From Chlamydiia bacterium (GTDB lineage Bacteria; Chlamydiota; Chlamydiia; Chlamydiales; Parachlamydiaceae), in the NCBI GenBank assembly GCA_038257035.1, contig JBBSJT010000051.1:1-16031 (forward strand): a stretch of 16,031 bases of DNA, in the 5' to 3' direction. The notes beneath the pieces are model-generated. The model had not been told where the DNA came from. It did no database searches and saw only the letters and a program-made list of their open reading frames with translations. Positions 480 through 15,870 of this stretch are shown here, in pieces (positions within the stretch are counted from its first letter, which is position 1; the number at the start of each line of letters is the position of its first letter). The position numbers and the translations under genes are program-made.

Positions 480-2114
480 TTACGACACTTCTAAAAGGGT
501 GCGTGTTCTTATTTTTTCATCGGGGATTGTATTGGCAATATTAACTGCCTGATTGTTTTGAAATTCACCCTTATAATAATGAACGGTTTTGGATTTATAC
601 ACGTACTTAGCAAGGTCGCGCAGCGTGTAACTTCTAATTTGCACATCAGGGATTTCGTTTGCAAAGTCGATCGCTTCGTCCAAGCAGCCTGTTCCCATTT
701 TTTTACAAATGAATTGAAGGGCTAAACTCTTTATTTTTAGATTATCGATGACTTTAGTAGCTTCAATTGCTTCTTCCCTAAACCCATCTTCCATAAGCTC
801 CCTTGAAATATTTAGCAAAGCATGCCATTCATCTTCGTTGGTCAATAATGTTTTGCATTCATGGATCGCCTGTAGATGAAGAACAAAATTAAAAGTCTTT
901 TTTTTCAATTCCAATTGAGGTGTTTTGCGGAGCATAGCAATTGCTTCCAAAAAACGCTCTTTTGCCGCAAGTGCAATTGAAAGACCCTCATAGGGTGTTG
1001 TACCGGCTATTAAAACAGGCATCATTTCAGATACCTCAATTGCTTTATCTAAATCACCAGCCATTGTCAATGTGTAACATAGAAAATTAATAACAGGTAC
1101 TTTATTGCGAGATTCCATCTGAAGAGTGAATTTAATAGCATCTTCCATAAACCCCACTTTGACAAGGCATTTAACTAAGGTAAGATAGGCCTCTTCAGTA
1201 GCTTGAACGTTGTATTCAACGGATTGAACATAAGCAATCAATTCCTCAATTTGTTTTTTGTCGATCGGCTCTATTCCCTCTAAAAAATAAGTTGAAATGG
1301 CTAGTACGGTACGAACTTTTGTATGCGCGCTTGTCTTGTCTTTTTTAATAAGATCCATTGCTTTACTAAATAATCCTTGTTCTGTCATTGCTTTACAGAT
1401 GGAAAAAAAAATAAGTTCATGGGCCCCATCGTGTTGAAAAAACGGAAGATGCTCCAGAGCCTTATCGAAAAGAAAACGTTTGATTAGTATCTCACAAACA
1501 GTTTTTCGGATGAGATCATTTAAGGTTTCAGAGTTTTTTGACGAAGTAATATTCATTGCTTTTTTATAGTAGCCCCATTCAGCTAATTCTTCAGCGACTT
1601 CAGAAAGATTACTTTCTGCTAAAGATAGACTATGTTTTCTCTGAATTTTAGCTAAATCAAAAATATCTCCAAAAAAACTAGGGGTTTTTTCTGGTTTTGG
1701 CATATATTTTAAATTGAGAAGTCGATCGTCATGATAATTTTTTAAAACATTTAAAATATTTTCACGAATCTCTTCAATGACCTCTTTGACTTCCATTAAA
1801 TTTTTTGCGTGAGGCATTTCTGTGCTATTTGTATGTCCCAAAAATTTATCTTTTTGATTATATTCTATTTTGTCAGCAGTTGTTCCCATCCATTCTAGGT
1901 AGGTTTTAATCAATGAAAGTTCTTCTGATTTAGCAAATGTGACGCATTCAAAGGTCCATGATTTACATGTTTTGGCCGCTTGTTGCATGCCTTCTGCATT
2001 CAAAAAACTTAAAATATGCGAAGATATTTCTAGAGGAAAATTGTTTGGCCACATTCCAACTTGCAAAGCATTTATTATCGGGTGATTATTATTTTGAATT
2101 GTTGATCTTATCAT
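480..2114 (-). CDS. F-box-like protein with C-terminal alpha-helical (TPR-like) repeats; candidate host-directed effector
   Basis: N-terminal WPNNFPLEISSHILSFLNAEGMQQAAKTCKSW F-box pattern. C-terminal repeats of the type (G..DEAI..A..IPD..IRS..L..I). Confidence 0.8.
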   Translation of the reverse strand: MIRSTIQNNNHPIINALQVGMWPNNFPLEISSHILSFLNAEGMQQAAKTCKSWTFECVTFAKSEELSLIKTYLEWMGTTADKIEYNQKDKFLGHTNSTEMPHAKNLMEVKEVIEEIRENILNVLKNYHDDRLLNLKYMPKPEKTPSFFGDIFDLAKIQRKHSLSLAESNLSEVAEELAEWGYYKKAMNITSSKNSETLNDLIRKTVCEILIKRFLFDKALEHLPFFQHDGAHELIFFSICKAMTEQGLFSKAMDLIKKDKTSAHTKVRTVLAISTYFLEGIEPIDKKQIEELIAYVQSVEYNVQATEEAYLTLVKCLVKVGFMEDAIKFTLQMESRNKVPVINFLCYTLTMAGDLDKAIEVSEMMPVLIAGTTPYEGLSIALAAKERFLEAIAMLRKTPQLELKKKTFNFVLHLQAIHECKTLLTNEDEWHALLNISRELMEDGFREEAIEATKVIDNLKIKSLALQFICKKMGTGCLDEAIDFANEIPDVQIRSYTLRDLAKYVYKSKTVHYYKGEFQNNQAVNIANTIPDEKIRTRTLLEVS

Positions 2115-6309: not shown

Positions 6310-6382
6310 GCTGACATAGCACAGTTGGTAGTGCACCTGATTTGTAATCAGGGGGTCGTGAGTTCGAGTCTTACTGTCAGCA
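6310..6382 (+). tRNA. tRNA-Thr(TGT)
   Basis: Acceptor stem GCTGACA/TGTCAGC-A, anticodon arm CCTGA-TT-TGT-AA-TCAGG, T-loop GTTCGAGTC. CCA not encoded. Confidence 0.97.
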
Positions 6383-6389
6383 ATTTCTC

Positions 6390-6471
6390 GGGGGTATCGC
6401 CTAGCGGCAATGGCAAGAGACTGTAAATCTCTCGACTTCGGTCTGCGTTGGTTCGAGTCCAACTGCCCCCA
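6390..6471 (+). tRNA. tRNA-Tyr(GTA)
   Basis: Acceptor stem GGGGGTA/TGCCCCC-A, anticodon arm AGAGA-CT-GTA-AA-TCTCT, long variable arm GAC-TTCG-GTC, T-loop GTTCGAGTC. Confidence 0.97.
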
Positions 6472-6491
6472 TATTTCATTCAAAGGCTATT

Positions 6492-6516
6492 TCGGTTGAT
6501 TAAACTAGTCAACCGA
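6492..6516 (+). terminator. Stem-loop downstream of tRNA-Tyr
   Basis: TCGGTTGA-ttaaactag-TCAACCGA. No clear U-tract. Confidence 0.45.
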
Positions 6517-6536
6517 TCTCATCCAAAAAGCGGGTT

Positions 6537-6645
6537 TTCCCCACTTTTACCCCACTTGTCCACAACACATAACAATAATTAGCAAAAGACTAAAAACATG
6601 TGTGTTGATGACAAATTACTATTTTACTGGGGTAAAAGTGGGGAA
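6537..6645. repeat. 18-bp perfect inverted repeat upstream of the integrase; candidate integrase arm-type binding sites
   Basis: TTCCCCACTTTTACCCCA (6537-6554) and TGGGGTAAAAGTGGGGAA (6628-6645). CCCCACTT is repeated at 6539 and 6550. Inner partial pairing TTGTC..CAACACA / TGTGTTG..GACAA. Confidence 0.8.
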
Positions 6646-6769
6646 TTCGCGTATTATCTCCCTTCTAAATTTATCAATCTCCGAGAGATTCTTAAGTTTG
6701 CGTCAAGAGAATATGAATCTCTTGTCCGTAATTTTTCAATGAAAATTAAGCAAGAAGAAGGGTTATAAT

Positions 6770-7831
6770 ATGGCATCAATCAAAGAACTTCCGGATAAAG
6801 ATGGTAAGACACGTTATCACGTTCAGATAAGAATAAAAGGATTTCCTCCGCAATACGGTTCATTTAAACCTAAAACGGATGCTGACAGATGGATTCAACA
6901 AACTGAATCTGCTATCCGAGAAGGTCGACACTTTAAAACTACAGAATCTAAAAAACATACTCTTGGCGATTTAATTGATCGCTACATTCGAGATATTCTT
7001 CCCACTAAGAAAAAAGTAGAAGAGAAGCAAAAAACTCAATTACTTTGGTGGAAAAAACAAATCGGCACTTACTTGTTATCAGACGTGACTTCTTCTATGA
7101 TTGCCGAACAAAGAGATGTTCTTCTTCGTGAAACAACTACAAGAAAAACCCTCCGCAGCCCTTCTACCGTAGTTCGATACCTAGCAGCGCTTTCACATGC
7201 TTTCACAATTGCCGTTAAAGAATGGGGATGGATTGAAGATTCTCCCACAAGAAAAGTGTCAAAGCCACGTGAACCACGCGGTAGGGTAAGGTTTCTTGAT
7301 GAGAAAGAAAGGCTAAAGCTCCTCGAGGCGTGCAAACAGAGTACAAATAGCTATCTATACACAATTGTTGTTCTTGCTCTCTCAACAGGAATGCGACAAG
7401 CAGAAATACTCAATCTTAAGTGGAGATCGGATGTAGATTTGGAAAGGGGTCGGGTTATTTTGCATGAAACTAAAAATGGAGATATTCGTCAGATCGCTAT
7501 AAAAGGCCATGCACTTAAACTTTTAAAAGATCTAGATAAAGTTCGCCGCTTAGACACTCAACTTCTATTCCCCGGAAAGTATCCCAAAAAGCCAGTCAAA
7601 ATACGTTCTGCATGGGAGAATGCTGTTAAAAATGCAGGCCTTACCAATCTGCGTTTTCATGATTTAAGGCATTGCTGTGCCTCATACCTCGCCATGAATT
7701 CAGCAAGCCTTGCAGAAATTGCCGAAGTGCTGGGTCATAAAACCCTTGCGATGGTTAAACGCTACGCGCACCTATCGGACAGTCATACCGCCGATGTTGT
7801 ATCTAAAATGAACGAGAAAATTTTTGGGTAA
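6770..7831 (+). CDS. int: Tyrosine recombinase / phage-type integrase, intact
   Basis: Full catalytic set: STGMRQAE (R), ETKNG (K), FHDLRH (HxxR), LGHK (H), KRYAH (Y). N-terminal arm-binding-like segment RYHVQIRIKG. Confidence 0.95.
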   Translation: MASIKELPDKDGKTRYHVQIRIKGFPPQYGSFKPKTDADRWIQQTESAIREGRHFKTTESKKHTLGDLIDRYIRDILPTKKKVEEKQKTQLLWWKKQIGTYLLSDVTSSMIAEQRDVLLRETTTRKTLRSPSTVVRYLAALSHAFTIAVKEWGWIEDSPTRKVSKPREPRGRVRFLDEKERLKLLEACKQSTNSYLYTIVVLALSTGMRQAEILNLKWRSDVDLERGRVILHETKNGDIRQIAIKGHALKLLKDLDKVRRLDTQLLFPGKYPKKPVKIRSAWENAVKNAGLTNLRFHDLRHCCASYLAMNSASLAEIAEVLGHKTLAMVKRYAHLSDSHTADVVSKMNEKIFG

Positions 7832-7838
7832 ATATTTT

Positions 7839-8867
7839 ATGAAAGCAAATCCTGTCACGATACCCGAAAGTCAATCTTCACTGAAATTGACGAAAACAAA
7901 GAAACGGAGCGCTTGGATAACGGGGCGACTCCGAGCCATTGCGGAAGGTTCCGGATTAAAAATTATCCTTAATAAAGCTTTAGAGTGTTTTTTTGATTCT
8001 TTGAGAAATCAAACTACAAAAACAAACTACAAAAAGGCGTTTGAGGCTATGTCTTTAAATGATCTTCTTGTTGTGGAAAGCTCTCTAGATGACTTTAAAG
8101 GCAATTATCTAGCAATTATTGAGAAAATCAAAAGTTGTTCATTTAAAAAGGGGAAAAGCAGATCGATTCGTACTGCATTATCATCATTTACTTCTTATCT
8201 AAATTCGGAATTAGAAGGCGGCATCGACAGAGGAGATGATTTGATAGATAAAGACCGCAAGGAGTATGAGGAAAAACTTGTACCCTTAAGCATTGAAGAA
8301 TGGGAAAAGTTTATTGCCTCTCTTCGTCAACTCAACCAGCGCGATGCAATGATTGCAGAACTGCTCCAATTGGCCAACGGCTCTGTATTTGCTTGGCTGT
8401 CTGATGAATTTTTAGAAGAAATTAAAAGAAAAAGGCAACAAAGTTATAAGGATCTGAAGCTATCGTGCTTGAAAAAAAGGCGAAGAGATAAACCGGCAAA
8501 AGGGACACCATTAGTTTCTCTTAAAATGATTCTAGAAATGCCGATAGAATATGTTTCTTTCGATGAAAAATGGTTGAGATTTGATAGAGATTATTTAGGT
8601 GGCATTGTTGCTCAATGTTATCCGTTTCCAAGCCATATTTTTACTGAACTTGAAAAAATTATGAGACCCAACACAGAGTTTGTTTTTACAACTATTGAAG
8701 GCGCTCCTGTAGCTGAAAATCAGTTAAAGAGAAGTTGCAAAAGGGCATCAGAAAAAGCTAAATTAAGTAAGCATGTTTCACCTAAAATGATCCGAATACC
8801 TATTCCTGAACTTGTGTATTGCCCATATTGTGAAAAACCTCGATGGAATGGCGAATGTTATTGTTAA
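7839..8867 (+). CDS. Degenerate tyrosine-recombinase-fold protein resembling chlamydial plasmid pGP7/pGP8, with a C-terminal CxxC..CxC tail
   Basis: LSIEEWEKFIASLRQLNQRD..IAELL, FPSHIFTEL, FVFTT..G.PV...QL and SPKMIR match pGP8-type integrases as I recall them. The first catalytic Arg and the terminal His/Tyr are not seen. ATG at 7839 preferred over TTG at 7824. Confidence 0.7.
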   Translation: MKANPVTIPESQSSLKLTKTKKRSAWITGRLRAIAEGSGLKIILNKALECFFDSLRNQTTKTNYKKAFEAMSLNDLLVVESSLDDFKGNYLAIIEKIKSCSFKKGKSRSIRTALSSFTSYLNSELEGGIDRGDDLIDKDRKEYEEKLVPLSIEEWEKFIASLRQLNQRDAMIAELLQLANGSVFAWLSDEFLEEIKRKRQQSYKDLKLSCLKKRRRDKPAKGTPLVSLKMILEMPIEYVSFDEKWLRFDRDYLGGIVAQCYPFPSHIFTELEKIMRPNTEFVFTTIEGAPVAENQLKRSCKRASEKAKLSKHVSPKMIRIPIPELVYCPYCEKPRWNGECYC

Positions 8868-8998
8868 TGAAGTGTGTCTGTATGTGGCATGTGATGTAGT
8901 TATTATTGTGGTTTGTGGTAACTTTTTGTTTTATTGAGCATAGGCCTGTAGAAGCCTCGCCAATGATAAAATCGAAACCATAAAAAAAGGGCATCTTT

Positions 8999-9217
8999 AT
9001 GACGGCAGTTGTAAAACATGAAAATAAAATTGAAGACGAATATTTAACATTTAATCAAGCCACACATCGCTTTCCGGCATTTTCAGAAGGTTCATTGCGA
9101 TGGCATCGCTTTAATAATACCGGCGGTTTCAATCGTTGTGTCCGAAAAATCGGCAGAAAATGTGTCATTTCGCTTTCAGAATTTCTAAAATGGATAGAAG
9201 AACAAACAGATTTATAA
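8999..9217 (+). CDS. Excisionase-like winged-HTH DNA-binding protein
   Basis: YLTFNQA...FSEGSLRW...VRKIGRKCVISLSEFLKWIE is an Xis/AlpA-like pattern. Confidence 0.75.
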   Translation: MTAVVKHENKIEDEYLTFNQATHRFPAFSEGSLRWHRFNNTGGFNRCVRKIGRKCVISLSEFLKWIEEQTDL

Positions 9218-9422
9218 AATAATTGCAATAACCTAAAACAAATAACAAAAGAAGACTATAAATGACAATAAAAACAAGTTAAGGATATATCCAAGAGTCA
9301 ATTAAATATTTTGGAAAAATAAAGAATTTGATACAGTGATGATTTACATATTTTAACGAAAGTAAAACAAAAGAATAAAAGAGATCGCGTTATGCATTAA
9401 AGGTAAATATGAAAGAAGATAC

Positions 9423-9460
9423 AAAAAAAGCTATGAGAAAATCTGACCTTTCTCATAGCT
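9423..9460 (-). terminator. Intrinsic terminator, minus strand
   Basis: AGCTATGAGAAA (9429-9440) and TTTCTCATAGCT (9449-9460) form a perfect stem. The A-run at 9423-9429 gives the U-tail on the minus strand. Confidence 0.8.
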
Positions 9461-9498
9461 GAATAGCACGGTATGGAAAACACCTGTCGCTAGTTGTA
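9423..9498 (-). ncRNA. Putative ~76-nt antisense (counter-transcribed) RNA
   Basis: Has its own consensus promoter (9533-9505), a 5' stem-loop UAGC-GAC-AGGUGU-UUUCC-AUACC-GU-GCUA, then a 12-bp terminator stem and a U-tract. Confidence 0.65.
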
Positions 9499-9504
9499 TC
9501 TCTT

Positions 9505-9533
9505 AGAATAGCAAAGATTATCCTGAATTTCAA
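9505..9533 (-). promoter_or_regulatory. sigma70-type promoter, antisense to the element's genes
   Basis: TTGAAA (9533-9528), 17 bp spacer, extended -10 TGc-TATTCT (9510-9505). Confidence 0.7.
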
Positions 9534-9612
9534 TGTAAAATATTTTCTTGATAAACAGGCTTGTCTTAAAATTTTGCTTTTTTCACATAACGCCGACTCC
9601 AAAAGGGGTTAA

Positions 9613-9882
9613 ATGGCGCCTAAATTCATAAATGACTTAATTAAAGAGCTTGGCGAAAGCCAAACGGTCAAGATTGACCAACTTGTTAAAATCGGGCTTT
9701 TTGGCACTGCCCAATCTGCCCGTCAGGCAGTGCGTTCAGGCCGCCTCCCACACATAGCAATATCACCTCGACGTCGACTTATAACCCGTGAGCATGTAAT
9801 TCAATTTATTACAGAAAATTTCCGTGATAAAATAGCAAACACCGACCTCTTTTCAAAGGAAGGCGTCAGTAATGATAAATGA
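9613..9882 (+). CDS. HTH_17/AlpA-like DNA-binding protein
   Basis: QSARQAVRSGRLPHIAISPRRRLITREHVIQFI is an excisionase-type wing. AGGGG RBS upstream. Confidence 0.7.
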   Translation: MAPKFINDLIKELGESQTVKIDQLVKIGLFGTAQSARQAVRSGRLPHIAISPRRRLITREHVIQFITENFRDKIANTDLFSKEGVSNDK

Positions 9883-10075: not shown

Positions 10076-12046
10076 ATGCCTGATAGCATAGCAGAAATAC
10101 AACAAGAAACGTTAGAAAACGACGTGAAACCTAAAGAACCCCTCACTACCGAATCGACGGAAGAAAATAGCGAAGAAATTCAAGACGGAGAAGAAGAAAC
10201 CACTAAGGAGAAGCCACCTGAAAAAATCTGTTATATCCTTGCAGGAGCCGGTACTAAAGACCTTAGGCTTTCACAAAAAAATGCAGGGAAAAAAGACTTA
10301 ACTTTTTTTGATAATGACTGGGGTTGGTGTTTTCAAAATGAAGAAGATGCATTAAAGATAGCTGAAAAATATACCAGAAAAGGCAAGGAAATTAAGGTTT
10401 CTCCTTGGTTTAGTGAAAGAGCCTATAGAAAATGGCACGGCACAAAATCAGAAAAAAGAGCAGTTGGAAAAGAAACTAAATATCTTATTTCATTACAGGA
10501 CGTGAATGAGAAAAAAAAACATATCGTTGATGCTTGCAACAAAGCAGGTTTTGATATCAGTTGCTTATATGAAGATAGCCCAACGGAAGACTTTAGCGAC
10601 TTAGAAAAGAAAACGTTCGAATTTTTAAAGAAGGACCGCTTTCCCGATTGGATAAAAGATAAGGAACTTTGCGAAGAGTTTAAAAAAGAATGGAAAGATG
10701 TCGAAGAGGAGATTAAAATTAATCCTTCTGGAGGTATAGAATATCAAATCGTCAAAAAACTCAATGAAACCCATGCCGTTGTTAGGCATACACAAACTTA
10801 TTTTTTGAGAGAAGAACCTCATGTTATTTTTGGCGGAATAGACTTTATCTTAGAAAGCAAACAGTCTGTAAAAGATTTTTATGAAAATAAAATTATTGAA
10901 TGTTCAGATGGAAAATTAAGGACTGAAGCTGAGATCTGGATTAAAAGTCCGCATAGAAGGGAGTATAAAGGGATCACATTTGACCCAACAGGCCATGCAG
11001 AAAAAAGAGGGCTTTATAACATATGGAAAGGATTTTCATTTACGCCTTCTAAAAATGGATCGTGCGAGTATTTTAAAGAGTTTGTCAAGAATGTTATTTG
11101 CTCTGGAAATTCAGCTTTTTTTGAGTACCTTTGGTCTTGGATGTCAATGTTAGTTCAAAAACCGCATATAATCCCAGAATCGGCTATTTTGTTAATGGGT
11201 TTACAAGGCACCGGAAAAGGCTTTTTTGCCAAGACCTTGGGCAAATTATTGGGTCAACATTTCCTTCATTTAGATAACATGGCGCGCCTGCTAGGCAACT
11301 TTAATAATCATATGAAAAACGCTGTCTTAGTTTTTGCAGATGAATCTATTTGGGAAGGCGGAAAAAAGGACATAGGAAAACTTAAAGCAATGATAACAGA
11401 AGAAACTGCTGTTATTGAGCAAAAAGGGAAAGATCTTTTTACAATAAAAAACTACAGGCACTTTATTTTTTCAAGCAATGAGGATTTGCCTGTCCATTTA
11501 GATCATGACGATAGAAGATTTTTTGTTTTAAAGGTTAGTGATAAGCATAAAGAGGACCATGATTATTTTAAGGCTATTTCCAAAGAGCTAGAAAATTGTG
11601 GGTGCGAAAGGCTTCTTTATGAGTTCCAAAAAGAAGATATATCAGATTTTAACCCTAGAAAAATCCCTTTAAATGTCGATGCTTTTGATGTGAAAATGCA
11701 AGACGCTTCATCTGCCGAAAATTATTTGTTCCATGCTTTAAGAGGGGGAAGTTTCGATATAGGAAACACATCGCCTTCATATGGTTGGAAAGATCAAATT
11801 ATGATTTCGTCAGTTTACAGTGATTACTTGGCCTGGTGCTTAAAAGAGCAGATTCTACAAAACAAAATAATTGAACGCCGGCTCTTTGGAAAACATCTCT
11901 CTAAACTCTTAAGATCAACAACAAAAACAAAACCTTCGGCACCTAAAGGAGAAACCAGACAAGAGTGTTACTGTTTTCCAGACTTACAAATCTCAAGAGC
12001 AGATTTTGAAAAGGCTTATAAAGTAGATTCTAGCATCTGGGATTAA
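10076..12046 (+). CDS. SF3/D5-like replicative helicase (DUF5906 / NrS-1-type helicase domain)
   Basis: Walker A GLQGTGKG, Walker B LVFADE, motif C FSSN, and DRRFFVL. Preceded by a FDP...YNIWKG segment typical of phage primase-helicases. The N-terminus is acidic and has no recognisable primase motif. Confidence 0.85.
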   Translation: MPDSIAEIQQETLENDVKPKEPLTTESTEENSEEIQDGEEETTKEKPPEKICYILAGAGTKDLRLSQKNAGKKDLTFFDNDWGWCFQNEEDALKIAEKYTRKGKEIKVSPWFSERAYRKWHGTKSEKRAVGKETKYLISLQDVNEKKKHIVDACNKAGFDISCLYEDSPTEDFSDLEKKTFEFLKKDRFPDWIKDKELCEEFKKEWKDVEEEIKINPSGGIEYQIVKKLNETHAVVRHTQTYFLREEPHVIFGGIDFILESKQSVKDFYENKIIECSDGKLRTEAEIWIKSPHRREYKGITFDPTGHAEKRGLYNIWKGFSFTPSKNGSCEYFKEFVKNVICSGNSAFFEYLWSWMSMLVQKPHIIPESAILLMGLQGTGKGFFAKTLGKLLGQHFLHLDNMARLLGNFNNHMKNAVLVFADESIWEGGKKDIGKLKAMITEETAVIEQKGKDLFTIKNYRHFIFSSNEDLPVHLDHDDRRFFVLKVSDKHKEDHDYFKAISKELENCGCERLLYEFQKEDISDFNPRKIPLNVDAFDVKMQDASSAENYLFHALRGGSFDIGNTSPSYGWKDQIMISSVYSDYLAWCLKEQILQNKIIERRLFGKHLSKLLRSTTKTKPSAPKGETRQECYCFPDLQISRADFEKAYKVDSSIWD

Positions 12047-12047
12047 A

Positions 12048-12361
12048 TTGGCATATTAAAAGTTAAGTTGGGCATATCTTGGGCATATTATCAAAATTTC
12101 ATAAATTGCTTATGTTTAATGCCTGGGCATATTAGGCGTATTAGACTTAAGAAAAGTAAATTACTAGAAAATCTGAAAAACGTGTTTTTTATCAATTTTT
12201 GCAAAAGCTTAGAAAAATGTAAAAAAAAGTGTTTTTTCAATCCTGGGCGATTAAATACACTGCCCAATATGTCTAATATGTCCAAGCATTAACAATTAAT
12301 GATTTAAGTGTTTTTTTAATATGCCCAAACAATATGCCCAAAGCTGTTTTGATATGCCCAA
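12048..12361. repeat. Putative replication origin: converging iterons around an AT-rich core
   Basis: TTGG(G)CATAT(T)-type copies at 12048, 12068, 12079, 12123, 12133. Inverted AATATG(C/T)C(C/T)A copies at 12266, 12275, 12318, 12331, 12351. Begins right after the helicase stop codon. Confidence 0.8.
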
Positions 12362-12746
12362 AAGGAAAAGAGTTTATGGAAGCGTAGATATTAAAATCAC
12401 GCAGTAGCGAGAAATCGTCCTTAAATGATGTAAGAAGGGACGGCCAGATAGAGGCGAAGAAAAAACTATGAAAAGCTAACATGAACAAAAGAAACAGCGT
12501 ACAGCCCGTAATTAATTCCAGAGGTTACAATGAAAGAGTATAGTGACCAGCCACAATTGAGGAAGAACTTTAAGAAGAGCGTGGCAGGCACGAAGCGAAA
12601 AGATAGGGAAAATTCAAAATCATTGAGAAAGCGGTTTAATCAGCGTACAATCGAATTTTACAATCTAACACCGAAGAGTCTAGGGTTAGTAAATTGTGAA
12701 GTGTCGCTAATTACACTAGCTTTCTGAAAGCTTTAAGCCATTCAAT

Positions 12747-12794: not shown

Positions 12795-13175
12795 ATGACA
12801 GATAACGAAGAATTATCGGATAAGCAACGGTCAGCATTAATCCACCTTGTAAGTGGACATACTATAGAGCAAGGGTGCAAAGATGCAGGGATTAGTCGAG
12901 ATTGTTTTTATCGGTGGCTAGAGAATCCAACATTCAAAGCGGAGCTTTCAAGACTTAGGGATGCGATATTTCTTGATGCTATAGAGCAACTTAAACACTC
13001 AATGAAATTAGCTTGTCACACTTTACAGGCACTTTGTGAAGACCCAGAATGTCCCCCAGCCGTGAAGCGTGGCGCGGCTTCCGATATTATCAGCCATTTA
13101 ATGAAGTGGAGGGAGACGCAGGACCTAGAAAAAAGAATTACACAGCTAGAAGAGCATGTTAAGGGGGTAAAATGA
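12795..13175 (+). CDS. HTH protein resembling small terminase / phBC6A51-like HTH with a C-terminal coiled coil
   Basis: LSDKQRSALIHLVSGHTIEQGCKDAGISRDCFYRWL..P.F (HTH), a helical body, then DLEKRITQLEE. ATG at 12795 follows an AGGA RBS, so it is preferred to 12762. Confidence 0.6.
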   Translation: MTDNEELSDKQRSALIHLVSGHTIEQGCKDAGISRDCFYRWLENPTFKAELSRLRDAIFLDAIEQLKHSMKLACHTLQALCEDPECPPAVKRGAASDIISHLMKWRETQDLEKRITQLEEHVKGVK

Positions 13176-13471
13176 CAAAATTATCAATTCGTTTAGATCG
13201 TATTGAAGAAGGAATCAGGCCAAAAGAACGAATGGCTCTTTGTTTTGGTAGGTGGAATAAGCTTAATGAGGATTGTAAACGACAGCATGAAGAATTCAAA
13301 GCCTTACATGGTGAGCTAGGCAAGGTTACATTTTATCACATGCAAGACTATTGTGGATACAAAGGTGAAGAGGAAAGTTACGAAGATTTTATTAAACGCA
13401 AACGGAAAGGCACAGGAAAAGGGAATTGTTATTGTTGGTGGCCGGAACTCACAGAAGATGAAGAAGTTTAA
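13172..13471 (+). CDS. Hypothetical protein translationally coupled to the TerS-like gene
   Basis: ATGA start/stop overlap, AAGGGGG RBS, and an N-terminal RLDRIEE coiled-coil-like motif. Confidence 0.7.
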   Translation: MTKLSIRLDRIEEGIRPKERMALCFGRWNKLNEDCKRQHEEFKALHGELGKVTFYHMQDYCGYKGEEESYEDFIKRKRKGTGKGNCYCWWPELTEDEEV

Positions 13472-13660
13472 AAAAGGACGGCTAATTCATTCCCTATTAC
13501 GAGAGGCATGTTTTAAAATAATTAATTGCCGATTTGGCGGCTCTCAGAGTTATTTAATAAACATAAACATATGAAAATTAAATATTTAAAGTTGATTTTA
13601 AAGTAATTAAAATGTATTATTTCTTTTAGTTTAATAAATTTAAAACCATAAAAGGTATAT

Positions 13661-14685: not shown

Positions 14686-14868
14686 CTGGAATATTACAAG
14701 AAAGCCGATTTTTATGGATACTATGAGACGGGAGATTTTGCCAGATTACGAAGAGCTTAAATGTGTCCCCTATTACGATTATTCAGGTTATTCAGTGTCA
14801 TTTACAGAGAAAAACGTGTCGAATTTCGCCCATATTACGAAGCAGAGTTTTTGCCATATTACGAGAAG
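14686..14868 (+). repeat. Degenerate direct-repeat array, core (TTTT)GCCATATTACGA, spacing ~24-27 bp
   Basis: TATTAC-type cores at 14692, 14719, 14744, 14771, 14833 and 14857. Confidence 0.6.
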
Positions 14869-14990
14869 TTAAAATCTTTAAGGCGGTTTTCTGTTCCATT
14901 ACTCCCAAGACCCCAACCGTACGGGATGCTAATACAATAATAATAAAATATTGGTGATTTTTTTGATAAGAATGGGGGGGGGGGCTCCTC

Positions 14991-15063: not shown

Positions 15064-15870
15064 TTATTTTTCAATACCTAAGTACTCCATCATTATTTTG
15101 TGAAGCAGTTCGTGAGGCAAACATCTGAAGGCACTATCGGGATCTTTAAACCCCCGAATCATTTCTTTTGGAACAGAAAAAAGTATTTCTTTGCACAAAT
15201 TCTCTATACGGGACGCAAATTGCCCATTTTGAAATCTCTTAAAATGTAGAAAAGGACTTGGAAGACTTTTTATTAATTTCCGTTCAAATGAAGGGAGTGA
15301 GCTAATGTCACTGATCTCGGAGCGACAATATTTATTTAGGTAATTTTCCAAGTCTTCAAATCGGCTACTTGGAAAATTGGCGAGATTTTGACGCGTACAA
15401 GCATTTTGAAAGACTTCTATTTGCTTCATTGTTGAACTAAGCGGAGCTTCAAAAACCCCATCAAGAAGGCCCGTTTGATGGTAGTTTGATAATGCTTTTA
15501 CTAAATAACCAATTTGAAATAGTGACACCATACCTATTGCTTGAGCATGCGCGGGAAGATCGTAAGCTAAAAGCCAGGCTCTTTCTCTAAGAGGTAATTT
15601 GTCATGATCCTGCCTTAGATGCGACATTAAACTTCGAATGTCGACCCCTAATTTTAAGGCGGCAGCGTCAAACATATCTTCCTCCACTAAAGACGGTGGA
15701 GGGAGACTTTCTATAAGCTGTCTGCGCACAACTTCTTTTGTATGCTTGTCTACTGAACATAGATTCAAAAATTGTTTTCTTTCACAATTCAAGAAAATAT
15801 AATCAGTCAACTCTCTTGGAAAGTTTTCAGGAGAATTTAATTGATGGTTTTCTAAACTTGTAGATATCAT
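15064..15870 (-). CDS. F-box-like protein with a second F-box/SOCS-like motif at the C-terminus
   Basis: N-terminal NFPRELTDYIFLNC....FLNLCSVDK. C-terminal FRCLPHELLHKIMMEYL. Confidence 0.7.
   Translation of the reverse strand: MISTSLENHQLNSPENFPRELTDYIFLNCERKQFLNLCSVDKHTKEVVRRQLIESLPPPSLVEEDMFDAAALKLGVDIRSLMSHLRQDHDKLPLRERAWLLAYDLPAHAQAIGMVSLFQIGYLVKALSNYHQTGLLDGVFEAPLSSTMKQIEVFQNACTRQNLANFPSSRFEDLENYLNKYCRSEISDISSLPSFERKLIKSLPSPFLHFKRFQNGQFASRIENLCKEILFSVPKEMIRGFKDPDSAFRCLPHELLHKIMMEYLGIEK

Follow-up and report, generated by a model that had tools for sequence, protein, structure and literature searches.

The window analysed here is the whole of contig JBBSJT010000051.1 (16,031 bp), which belongs to a genome of 2.37 Mb in 210 contigs (95.8% complete) of a Chlamydiia bacterium of the Parachlamydiaceae. 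Behind two tRNA genes, it carries an island whose integrase gene (protein P0002) is directly followed by the gene under study, which encodes a recombinase-like protein of unusual make-up, P0001 (7839-8867, + strand). We are highly confident that P0001 is a real, conserved and, as far as its residues tell, non-catalytic descendant of the Pgp7/8 family of integrases, and that it represents the fixed second gene of an integrase operon in small chlamydial islands which integrate at tRNA genes and encode a primase. Regarding its function, the reading that we favour, to which we assign a probability of about 0.45, is that P0001 is a non-catalytic DNA-binding regulator, by analogy with the recombinase-fold repressors MrpR and SroF.

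Fold and descent of P0001

The reading frame of P0001 is unbroken from its ATG start to its TAA stop and encodes 342 amino acids (aa); as a preliminary description of the window had reported, this intact open reading frame (ORF) starts 7 nucleotides (nt) past the stop of the integrase gene, which ends at 7831. Residues 42-176 match the integrase family phrog_1 of PHROG (3e-5) and residues 261-319 weakly match NCBIfam XerA (8e-4, far under the cut-off); a Pfam scan of P0001 gave no match, and the best hit of a PDB sequence search was not significant (E 0.68). In the ESM Atlas, the clusters nearest to P0001 are integrases (0.93-0.94). Two homologues were retrieved by a word-based search of 5.8 billion proteins and 140 representatives by an exhaustive profile search at E <= 1e-3, with only four at 1e-30; PF00589 is present in 47 of 60 aligned family members. 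For the close homologues P0003-P0008, a family-alignment search of genome, metagenome and viral contigs returned no locus.

An AlphaFold2 (AF2) model of P0001 made with a 3-sequence alignment was poor (predicted local distance difference test, pLDDT, of 48), and the model used here was built from a 60-sequence alignment (pLDDT 82.1; predicted template modelling score, pTM, 0.73). Its Foldseek matches are XerA (3e-6), Tn1549 Int, lambda Int and XerH (E 3e-6 to 1e-4), and VIA aligned both domains with XerA (Z 13.4, 225 residues aligned), XerH (Z 12.8, 251 aligned), XerD and IntI (both Z 12.4). The core-binding (SAM-like) domain at residues 42-147 (7962-8279, + strand), which lies within the phrog_1 match and is modelled at a pLDDT of 86-97, was matched by VIA to integrase N-terminal domains at Z 8-10. 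At the level of the model, it is hence confirmed that P0001 has the two-domain fold of a tyrosine recombinase, formerly read from motifs, with a helical core-binding domain and a catalytic-domain fold.

By profile comparison, P0001 descends from the Pgp7/8 family. Indeed, an hhalign profile of seven P0001 family sequences matched two plasmid integrases of Chlamydia suis, of 330 aa (98.6%, 7e-16, 232 columns) and 304 aa (98.5%, 1.7e-15, 233 columns), which are both recorded only as 'site-specific integrase' and which we take, from their lengths, to be Pgp8-like and Pgp7-like, respectively; the affinity to pGP7/pGP8, which the preliminary description had proposed, is thereby borne out. A tandem duplication of P0002 had been considered as the source of P0001 and was dropped, the same profile scoring 0.2% against P0002: because it matches the C. 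suis plasmid integrases and not P0002, P0001 is not a copy of its neighbour. Among plasmids, the top tblastn match of P0001 is the recombinase of Waddlia pWc (2e-5). According to Köstlbacher et al., the Pgp7/8 family is limited to chlamydial plasmids and chromosomes (PMC7846284), and an origin from plasmids, as had been proposed for P0001, is not supported as worded, since Pgp7/8 genes also lie on chromosomes and since the clade without catalytic tyrosine (Tyr-less) to which P0001 belongs was seen in chromosomal islands only.

P0001 thus shares with the Pgp7/Pgp8 plasmid integrases homology over both domains (232-233 columns) and the same phylum, but it has lost Arg-I, Lys, His-I, His-II and Tyr, has gained a 45-aa insertion and a four-cysteine (Cys4) tail, and follows an unrelated integrase within a tRNA island of the chromosome instead of lying on a plasmid. 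Its descent places P0001 in the Pgp7/8 family and in the superfamily of tyrosine recombinases, and by its aligned residues it fails the enzymatic definition of both.

Loss of the catalytic residues

The catalytic columns were taken from a MAFFT alignment of 11 rows that includes four active relatives and P0002. Only one of the six catalytic positions is retained in P0001, namely Arg-II (R319, 8793-8795), which is invariant in 11/11 rows. Arg-I is replaced by S227 (8517-8519), with Ser or Thr in all other dead members, the hairpin Lys by V257 (8607-8609), with Val or Ile in the close homologues, and His-I by K316 (8784-8786), with Lys, Val or Ala in the other dead members, and both His-II and Tyr are absent from P0001 as well as from the other dead members. 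The hhalign alignments with the C. suis integrases agree with MAFFT and terminate at R319, 23 residues before the C-terminus, the truncated remnant of the catalytic domain spanning residues 227-322 (8517-8804, + strand). The Arg-I column, whose assignment rests on MAFFT and hhalign, is the least certain of the six because hmmalign with a hidden Markov model of the active family gave differing residues among the dead members. Active Pgp7/8-type proteins (about 305-340 aa) are recognised by an HxxR...GH...Y box, which was found in 18/18 active-type loci and is lacking in P0001. With Tyr, Lys and both His gone from the alignment, strand cleavage by the known mechanism would be excluded, as follows from the established knowledge of tyrosine recombinases, and the earlier view of P0001 as a catalytically dead protein is upheld. 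Unlike P0001, its best structural matches over the core-binding and catalytic domains, namely XerA, XerH, XerD, lambda Int and Tn1549 Int (Z 11.7-13.4), have retained all the catalytic residues as well as the C-terminal helix with the Tyr.

The neighbouring integrase P0002 would be catalytically live, judging from its catalytic residues: R209, K235, H297, R300, H323 and Y332 do not vary across 40 aligned relatives. Its family is very large, with at least 7985 proteins at E <= 1e-20 among 8000 candidates scored, and the named relatives belong to Parachlamydia and other Chlamydiota.

A conserved basic loop and a Cys4 tail

The insertion of P0001 covers residues about 182-226 (8382-8516, + strand), between 'LQLANG' and 'SLKMIL' and immediately before the Arg-I column; active relatives and two shorter homologues, P0006 and P0008, lack it. 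In the model, it forms a helix (189-207) followed by a low-confidence loop, pLDDT being low at residues 185-187 and 206-222. The preliminary description had called it a basic insertion of about 45 aa; its place and size are as described, and its net charge is +7 in P0001, but the basic character is only partly general. Indeed, the first 31 residues (182-212) are identical at 8-9/31 positions and carry charges of +2, -7 and +1 among three close members, and only the last 14 residues (213-226, nt 8475-8516), KKRRRDKPAKGTPL, are both conserved (11-12/14) and basic (+4 to +5). C210, within the insertion, is invariant.

After 'SPKMIR', P0001 ends in CPYC-x8-CYC, so that C328, C331, C340 and C342 with the stop codon (8805-8867, + strand) stand in place of the His-II/Tyr segment, as had been noticed at first sight. 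The pattern CPxC-x8-CxC is invariant in P0001, P0003, P0004 and P0005, and a shortened form, CPFC-x3-CVC, is present in P0006; altogether, the Cys4 tail was found in 5/141 sequences examined. While overall identity is about 50%, conservation is highest in this tail and at the basic end of the insertion. The tail probably forms a zinc-binding knuckle of four cysteines.

A private frameshift artefact, considered as the origin of the tail, was dropped since the pattern is common to four homologues (P0003-P0006). The last codons have a history of their own. Relative to P0003-P0005, positions 8856-8872 are an insertion of 17 nt, and the following 27 nt (8873-8899, in another frame) still encode CVCMWHVM-stop, which is the ending of the homologues. 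As this ending survives out of frame, the present CYC-stop lies in the 17-nt insertion and the CxC spacing has been re-created; by this comparison, the Cys4 tail is old overall and its last codons are a local rearrangement (8856-8899, + strand). Elsewhere in the window, a 99-aa ORF (13172-13471) has GNCYCWW near its end, like the G-x-C-x-C-x-W of the homologues' tails (GCVCMW in P0005), a similarity possibly due to chance.

The loss of five catalytic positions, an N-terminus shorter than that of P0004/P0005 and the 17-nt insertion at the 3' end are also what a functionless second integrase in decay could display. However, the frame of 342 codons is intact, in homologues at 46-51% identity the frame is kept along with the basic loop and the cysteines of the tail, and the Tyr-less state is common to a clade spread across 12 genomes of the order; we hence regard simple decay as highly improbable.

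A wider clade of Tyr-less derivatives

P0004 and the 140 representatives retrieved with the dead-family profile as query make up a set of 141 sequences, a sample biased toward dead members because of this query. Arg-I, Arg-II and Tyr are all present in 63/141, and 51/141 align through the HxxR box yet are empty at the His-II and Tyr columns, some of these 51 being possibly cut by contig ends. Tyr-less sequences are modular: 13 sequences, all Tyr-less, have an extra N-terminal domain recognised by motif, of which P0001 retains the last motif only; the core-binding domain is either present or deleted; and the C-terminus ends at Arg-II, in a Cys4 knuckle or in DUF4096. DUF4096 replaces the C-terminal segment in a sister lineage formed by a second island of the same genome and six representatives. 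In Pfam, this domain is a putative transposase of the IS4/5 family. It is located at the N-terminus of IS4/5-family transposases and is presumed to bind DNA. A quick maximum-likelihood tree groups the Tyr-less sequences with Shimodaira-Hasegawa-like approximate likelihood ratio (SH-aLRT) values of 96-98; as the tree has many long branches, a single origin of the dead state is not claimed. P0001 is, on this alignment, part of a wider clade of Tyr-less Pgp7/8 derivatives, of which a limited, non-exhaustive literature search found no description.

The second island of this genome (L096:4313-11085 (-), contig C16 of G000) contains a tRNA-Leu, an integrase, a dead recombinase, a helix-turn-helix (HTH) gene and primases. 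Its integrase, behind tRNA-Leu, is 47% identical to P0002, and directly 3' of it lies a gene for a 380-aa protein that combines the N-terminal domain, a truncated catalytic domain (hhalign 98.5%, 2.6e-15) and DUF4096 (2.6e-16). The next genes downstream are an HTH-like ORF (104 aa), a DUF927 primase and a gene resembling a CHC2/Toprim primase. Both P0002-family integrases of this genome are thus followed by a dead recombinase.

Linkage to integrases and the exchangeable slot

The tight link to the integrase, which had been described from the window alone, is recurrent. A profile of the Tyr-less clade, with the integrase kept out of the query, was run against 301 genomes of the order and gave clade-type matches at 13 places in 12 genomes; at 12/13 of them, the gene immediately upstream, in the same orientation, is a P0002-family integrase (44-58% identical), the exception being L107. 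The integrase is apparently broken in L101 and L105 and cut by a contig end in L103 and L109, and a 540-nt gap separates the two genes in L103. At the 18 next-best loci, the HxxR...GH...Y box is intact in 18/18 and a P0002-family integrase occurs within 1.5 kb in 0/18. The 7-nt spacing of the window has a counterpart in L036, where the two genes overlap by 4 nt. The islands share the gene order tRNA, integrase, dead recombinase, small HTH and primase, and their integration targets vary between tRNA-Tyr, Leu, Asn and Met. In L101 (G189:C1), the integrase matches only from residue 176 on and abuts an unlike ORF of 304 aa, perhaps for a transposase, which suggests an insertion into the integrase gene.

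Viewed from the integrase side, the picture is broader. Among 80 metagenome loci collected by their integrase, 54 could be judged, as they include the integrase's 3' end with 900 nt or more behind it, and in 40 of these 54 a co-directional ORF of at least 150 aa abuts the integrase stop, the occupants falling into 18 BLAST clusters. The commonest, at 11/40 loci (including L051, L055, L058, L059, L061, L064, L070, L071 and L084), is a family of about 610 aa with a C-terminal XRE-type HTH labelled repressor/regulator by PHROGs. Six further loci carry a second family of Tyr-less recombinases, whose members stop about 20 aa past the former HxxR box and have lost Arg-II too, and four carry the L016 family (L016, L018, L023 and L049); the others are small groups and singletons without a recognisable domain.

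In L016, the closest island, the integrase is 91% identical in amino acids and the tRNA-Tyr in front of the island is the same. By blastn, L016 is colinear with two stretches of the window, 6386-7832 (85% identity) and 8983-9855 (84%), with no match between: window positions 7833-8982 (+ strand), that is, the P0001 gene and 115 nt downstream, are exchanged in L016 for 1271 unrelated bases. Its slot gene (L016:1452-2579) encodes a 376-aa protein without a recognisable domain, for which the ESM Atlas gave nothing useful. From this swap of a cassette, it follows that the place behind the integrase is an exchangeable slot, and that the integrase, which is kept together with the tRNA-Tyr site in the absence of P0001, does not need P0001 for this site. 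Among the families found there, that of the dead recombinase is almost confined to the slot.

Such a linkage raises the possibility that P0001 is a recombination helper, i.e., a non-catalytic partner of the integrase (architectural or arm-site subunit, directionality factor or site selector) that would be produced in step with it and join the intasome on attachment (att) DNA, which we consider a less probable explanation. The position of Tyr-less genes directly 3' of a P0002-family integrase, as compared with its absence at active Pgp7/8-type loci, the repetition of this arrangement in the second island and the very short or overlapping spacing all argue for it. Moreover, a precedent exists in the Tsy element, made of a tyrosine recombinase (YRec), an HTH protein and a TnsF-like recombinase, and in Tn6022, whose TnsF is catalytically inactive and serves DNA-site recognition, selecting the target (PMC10293859). 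TnsF and the Tsy TnsF-like protein resemble P0001 in being a second recombinase-like protein with cysteines (zinc-binding in TnsF) beside a YRec and a small HTH protein. However, TnsF has N-terminal zinc fingers and tandem core-binding-like domains and works with TnsABC/TniQ of the Tn7 type, whereas the Cys4 of P0001 is C-terminal, and Pfam found no TnsA/B/C or TniQ among the 16 ORFs of the window. Also against a helper, the L016 integrase has an unrelated slot gene, the ORF abutting the integrase comes from other families at 34/40 related loci, and thousands of integrase relatives face a handful of close P0001 homologues. Regarding a directionality factor in particular, the two downstream HTH_17-like genes are more usual excisionase candidates; with 342 aa and a recombinase fold, P0001 is unlike the Xis/AlpA-type factors, which are small DNA-bending proteins (under about 120 aa) of winged-helix or HTH_17 type, a description that the ORFs at 8999-9217 and 9613-9882 fit better. 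A specific form of this idea, in which the integrase and P0001 make up a 'one live, one dead' pair from two tyrosine-recombinase subfamilies, and in which the dead subunit, co-translated with the integrase, would use its clamp, basic loop and zinc knuckle to recognise the site or to shape the synapse, is in our opinion rather doubtful.

The variability of the slot, with its 18 unrelated clusters in 40 loci, could also point to cargo. P0001 might have kept a Pgp7/8-type site specificity and act as a dominant negative against chlamydial plasmids or rival islands, or be another exclusion or defence factor in a variable hotspot. Its parent family is carried by chlamydial plasmids (PMC7846284), and no active Pgp7/8-type gene was found in its own genome (95.8% complete) or in two genomes of the same genus, but plasmids may merely be missing from a binned assembly. 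PADLOC gave no defence-family match for P0001 or 16 other slot proteins, HTH modules excepted, and the strict position and kept order of integrase, dead recombinase, HTH and primase suggest a core module and not cargo; interference is accordingly an unlikely role.

A proposed role as a DNA-binding regulator

For P0001 as a regulator, the closest known proteins are MrpR/YopR of SPbeta and SroF of phi3T, which likewise display a recombinase fold predicted or known to lack the chemistry and are encoded on mobile elements. MrpR is reported to have the tyrosine-recombinase fold, to have lost recombination and to act as a master repressor (PMC10516654), and SroF to bind DNA through an integrase-like fold (bioRxiv 10.1101/2025.11.27.690993). 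The P0001 model matches their structures in Foldseek (9rd5 1.9e-3, 8a0a 3.5e-2, 8bj6 7.5e-2; template modelling score about 0.3) and in VIA (8a0a Z 9.0, 9rd5 Z 8.3), and the PDB sequence search showed no sequence relation of P0001 to the solved MrpR/YopR/SroF structures. These proteins differ from P0001 by their phylum and type of element: P0001 is coupled to a tyrosine integrase and has a Cys4 tail, whereas the elements bearing MrpR and SroF use a serine integrase (PMC10516654). Among the VIA matches of the P0001 model is also Ndc10. Both Ndc10 and ALOG are recombinase folds turned DNA-binding.

That P0001 acts by binding DNA is plausible. In the mechanism that we infer, it would keep the two-domain, C-shaped DNA clamp of a tyrosine recombinase and be unable to cut DNA, its pocket being remodelled by the conserved basic loop right before the former Arg-I and its Tyr-bearing C-terminal segment being replaced by the four-cysteine, probably zinc-binding, knuckle. 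Made from one transcript with the integrase, P0001 would bind specific sites in its own island and determine in which state the HTH-primase module downstream of it is kept; its role would be that of a repressor or immunity factor specific to the island, comparable to MrpR/YopR and SroF in SPbeta-type phages. The P0001 gene and its 115 nt of flank would form one exchangeable unit, as expected of a regulator with its cognate control region.

Several findings speak for a regulator. The commonest alternative occupant of the slot carries an XRE-type HTH, the sister lineage bears DUF4096 at the very C-terminal segment that is Cys4 in P0001, and P0001 with its flank is exchanged while the integrase, the tRNA-Tyr site and the HTH gene (89%) stay. 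A repressor co-transcribed with the integrase is, moreover, the design of P2/186-type phages and of Staphylococcus aureus pathogenicity islands (SaPIs). Other points weigh against a regulator. No operator was found, since 12-mers of the cassette flank (1 mismatch) do not occur in other intergenic regions above shuffled sequences. The likeness to MrpR/YopR/SroF is at the fold level only and weaker than that to active recombinases, and the near-obligate place behind the integrase, with its 7-nt gap or 4-nt overlap, fits an integrase partner equally, which the Tsy/TnsF precedent would favour by analogy. Finally, a 'regulator slot' rests on one family because most other occupants have no recognisable domain.

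Architecture of the island

The island starts directly 3' of tRNA-Tyr (6390-6471, + strand), which is preceded by tRNA-Thr (6310-6382, + strand), both found by ARAGORN; the two tRNA genes (6310-6471) are followed, on the same strand and as annotated with Pfam and PHROG, by the integrase, P0001, small HTH genes and a primase. P0002 (353 aa; 6770-7831, + strand) matches PF00589 (2e-34) and phrog_1 (3e-65). Past the cassette come a small HTH_17-like gene (72 aa; 8999-9217, + strand; Pfam HTH_17 0.005, below cut-off), which is 89% identical in L016, is present beside the slot in 10/80 related loci and is a candidate excisionase or AlpA-type regulator, and a second one (89 aa; 9613-9882, + strand; Pfam HTH_17 0.002, below cut-off), 80% identical in L016. 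The replication gene of primase/helicase type (656 aa; 10076-12046, + strand) matches DUF5906 (7e-25) and the PHROG DNA primase (3e-43). A small-terminase-like HTH gene is a weak match (PHROG 4.5e-6; Pfam below cut-off). P4-like or PICI-like phage satellites are defined by an integrase, an AlpA-type regulator, a primase or replicase, packaging-redirection genes and a helper phage; of these, the island shows an integrase, HTH_17-like genes and a DUF5906 primase. With this content and the weak terminase-like gene, the earlier proposal that P0001 would link chlamydial plasmids to satellites is not supported as it was worded.

Just 3' of the primase gene (12047-12400), an AT-rich stretch lies between repeats of the GGGCATAT type, which are direct to one side of it and inverted to the other; the block is a candidate iteron-type origin of the island. 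Such an origin, the recurrent order of integrase, dead recombinase, HTH and primase, and the counting of Pgp7/8 among chlamydial plasmid maintenance genes (PMC7846284) are compatible with a replication accessory that would bind the origin and help to load the downstream primase/helicase. Nevertheless, the primase type varies (DUF5906, DUF927, prim-pol-like) with a constant dead recombinase, the slot gene and the replication genes both differ in L016, and the 12-mer search tied no repeats to P0001, which makes a replication role very unlikely.

In the interval from tRNA-Tyr to the start of the integrase gene, a perfect 18-nt inverted repeat (6537-6554/6628-6645) with 73 nt between its arms could be a binding site for the integrase or a regulator. 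The right end of the island was not located by repeat search in the window, in L035 or in L036; the 3' end of tRNA-Tyr has no second copy in the window that would mark attR, with up to 3 mismatches allowed, and no convincing direct repeat was found there. Near the presumed right part of the island, 3-4 copies of a TATTACGA-containing 20-mer (14759-14864, and 13490-13503) precede a tract of 11 G (about 14975-14986), and these elements may be arm-type sites or the island end. Excised or empty-site joints were absent from the contigs of one soil DNA run, which at a depth of about 5 is uninformative, and no RNA run containing the window stretch is listed, only this soil DNA run. On either side of the island, the flanking genes resemble those for F-box-type host-interaction proteins, the one at 480-2114 (- strand) by an F-box-like Pfam match (4e-4, below cut-off) and the one at 15064-15870 (- strand) by an F-box-like N-terminal motif seen by eye only.

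Significance

Recombinase folds turned into pure DNA binders are known from few cases, such as the repressors of SPbeta type and TnsF. If our reading is true, a whole chlamydial clade would be added to them, derived from the phylum's own family of plasmid integrases, with modular C-terminal replacements (nothing, a Cys4 knuckle or DUF4096) and an almost obligate place behind an integrase. Should the pair of one live and one dead recombinase be the true state of affairs, the slot gene would be the exchangeable specificity module of chlamydial tRNA islands, and obligate intracellular bacteria would possess a division of labour of the Tsy/TnsF-like kind. Since little is understood of the mobile elements in environmental chlamydiae, and since few genetic tools exist for the phylum, the module of integrase, accessory gene, HTH and primase, with its exchangeable second gene, offers a concrete system for studying the control of such islands.

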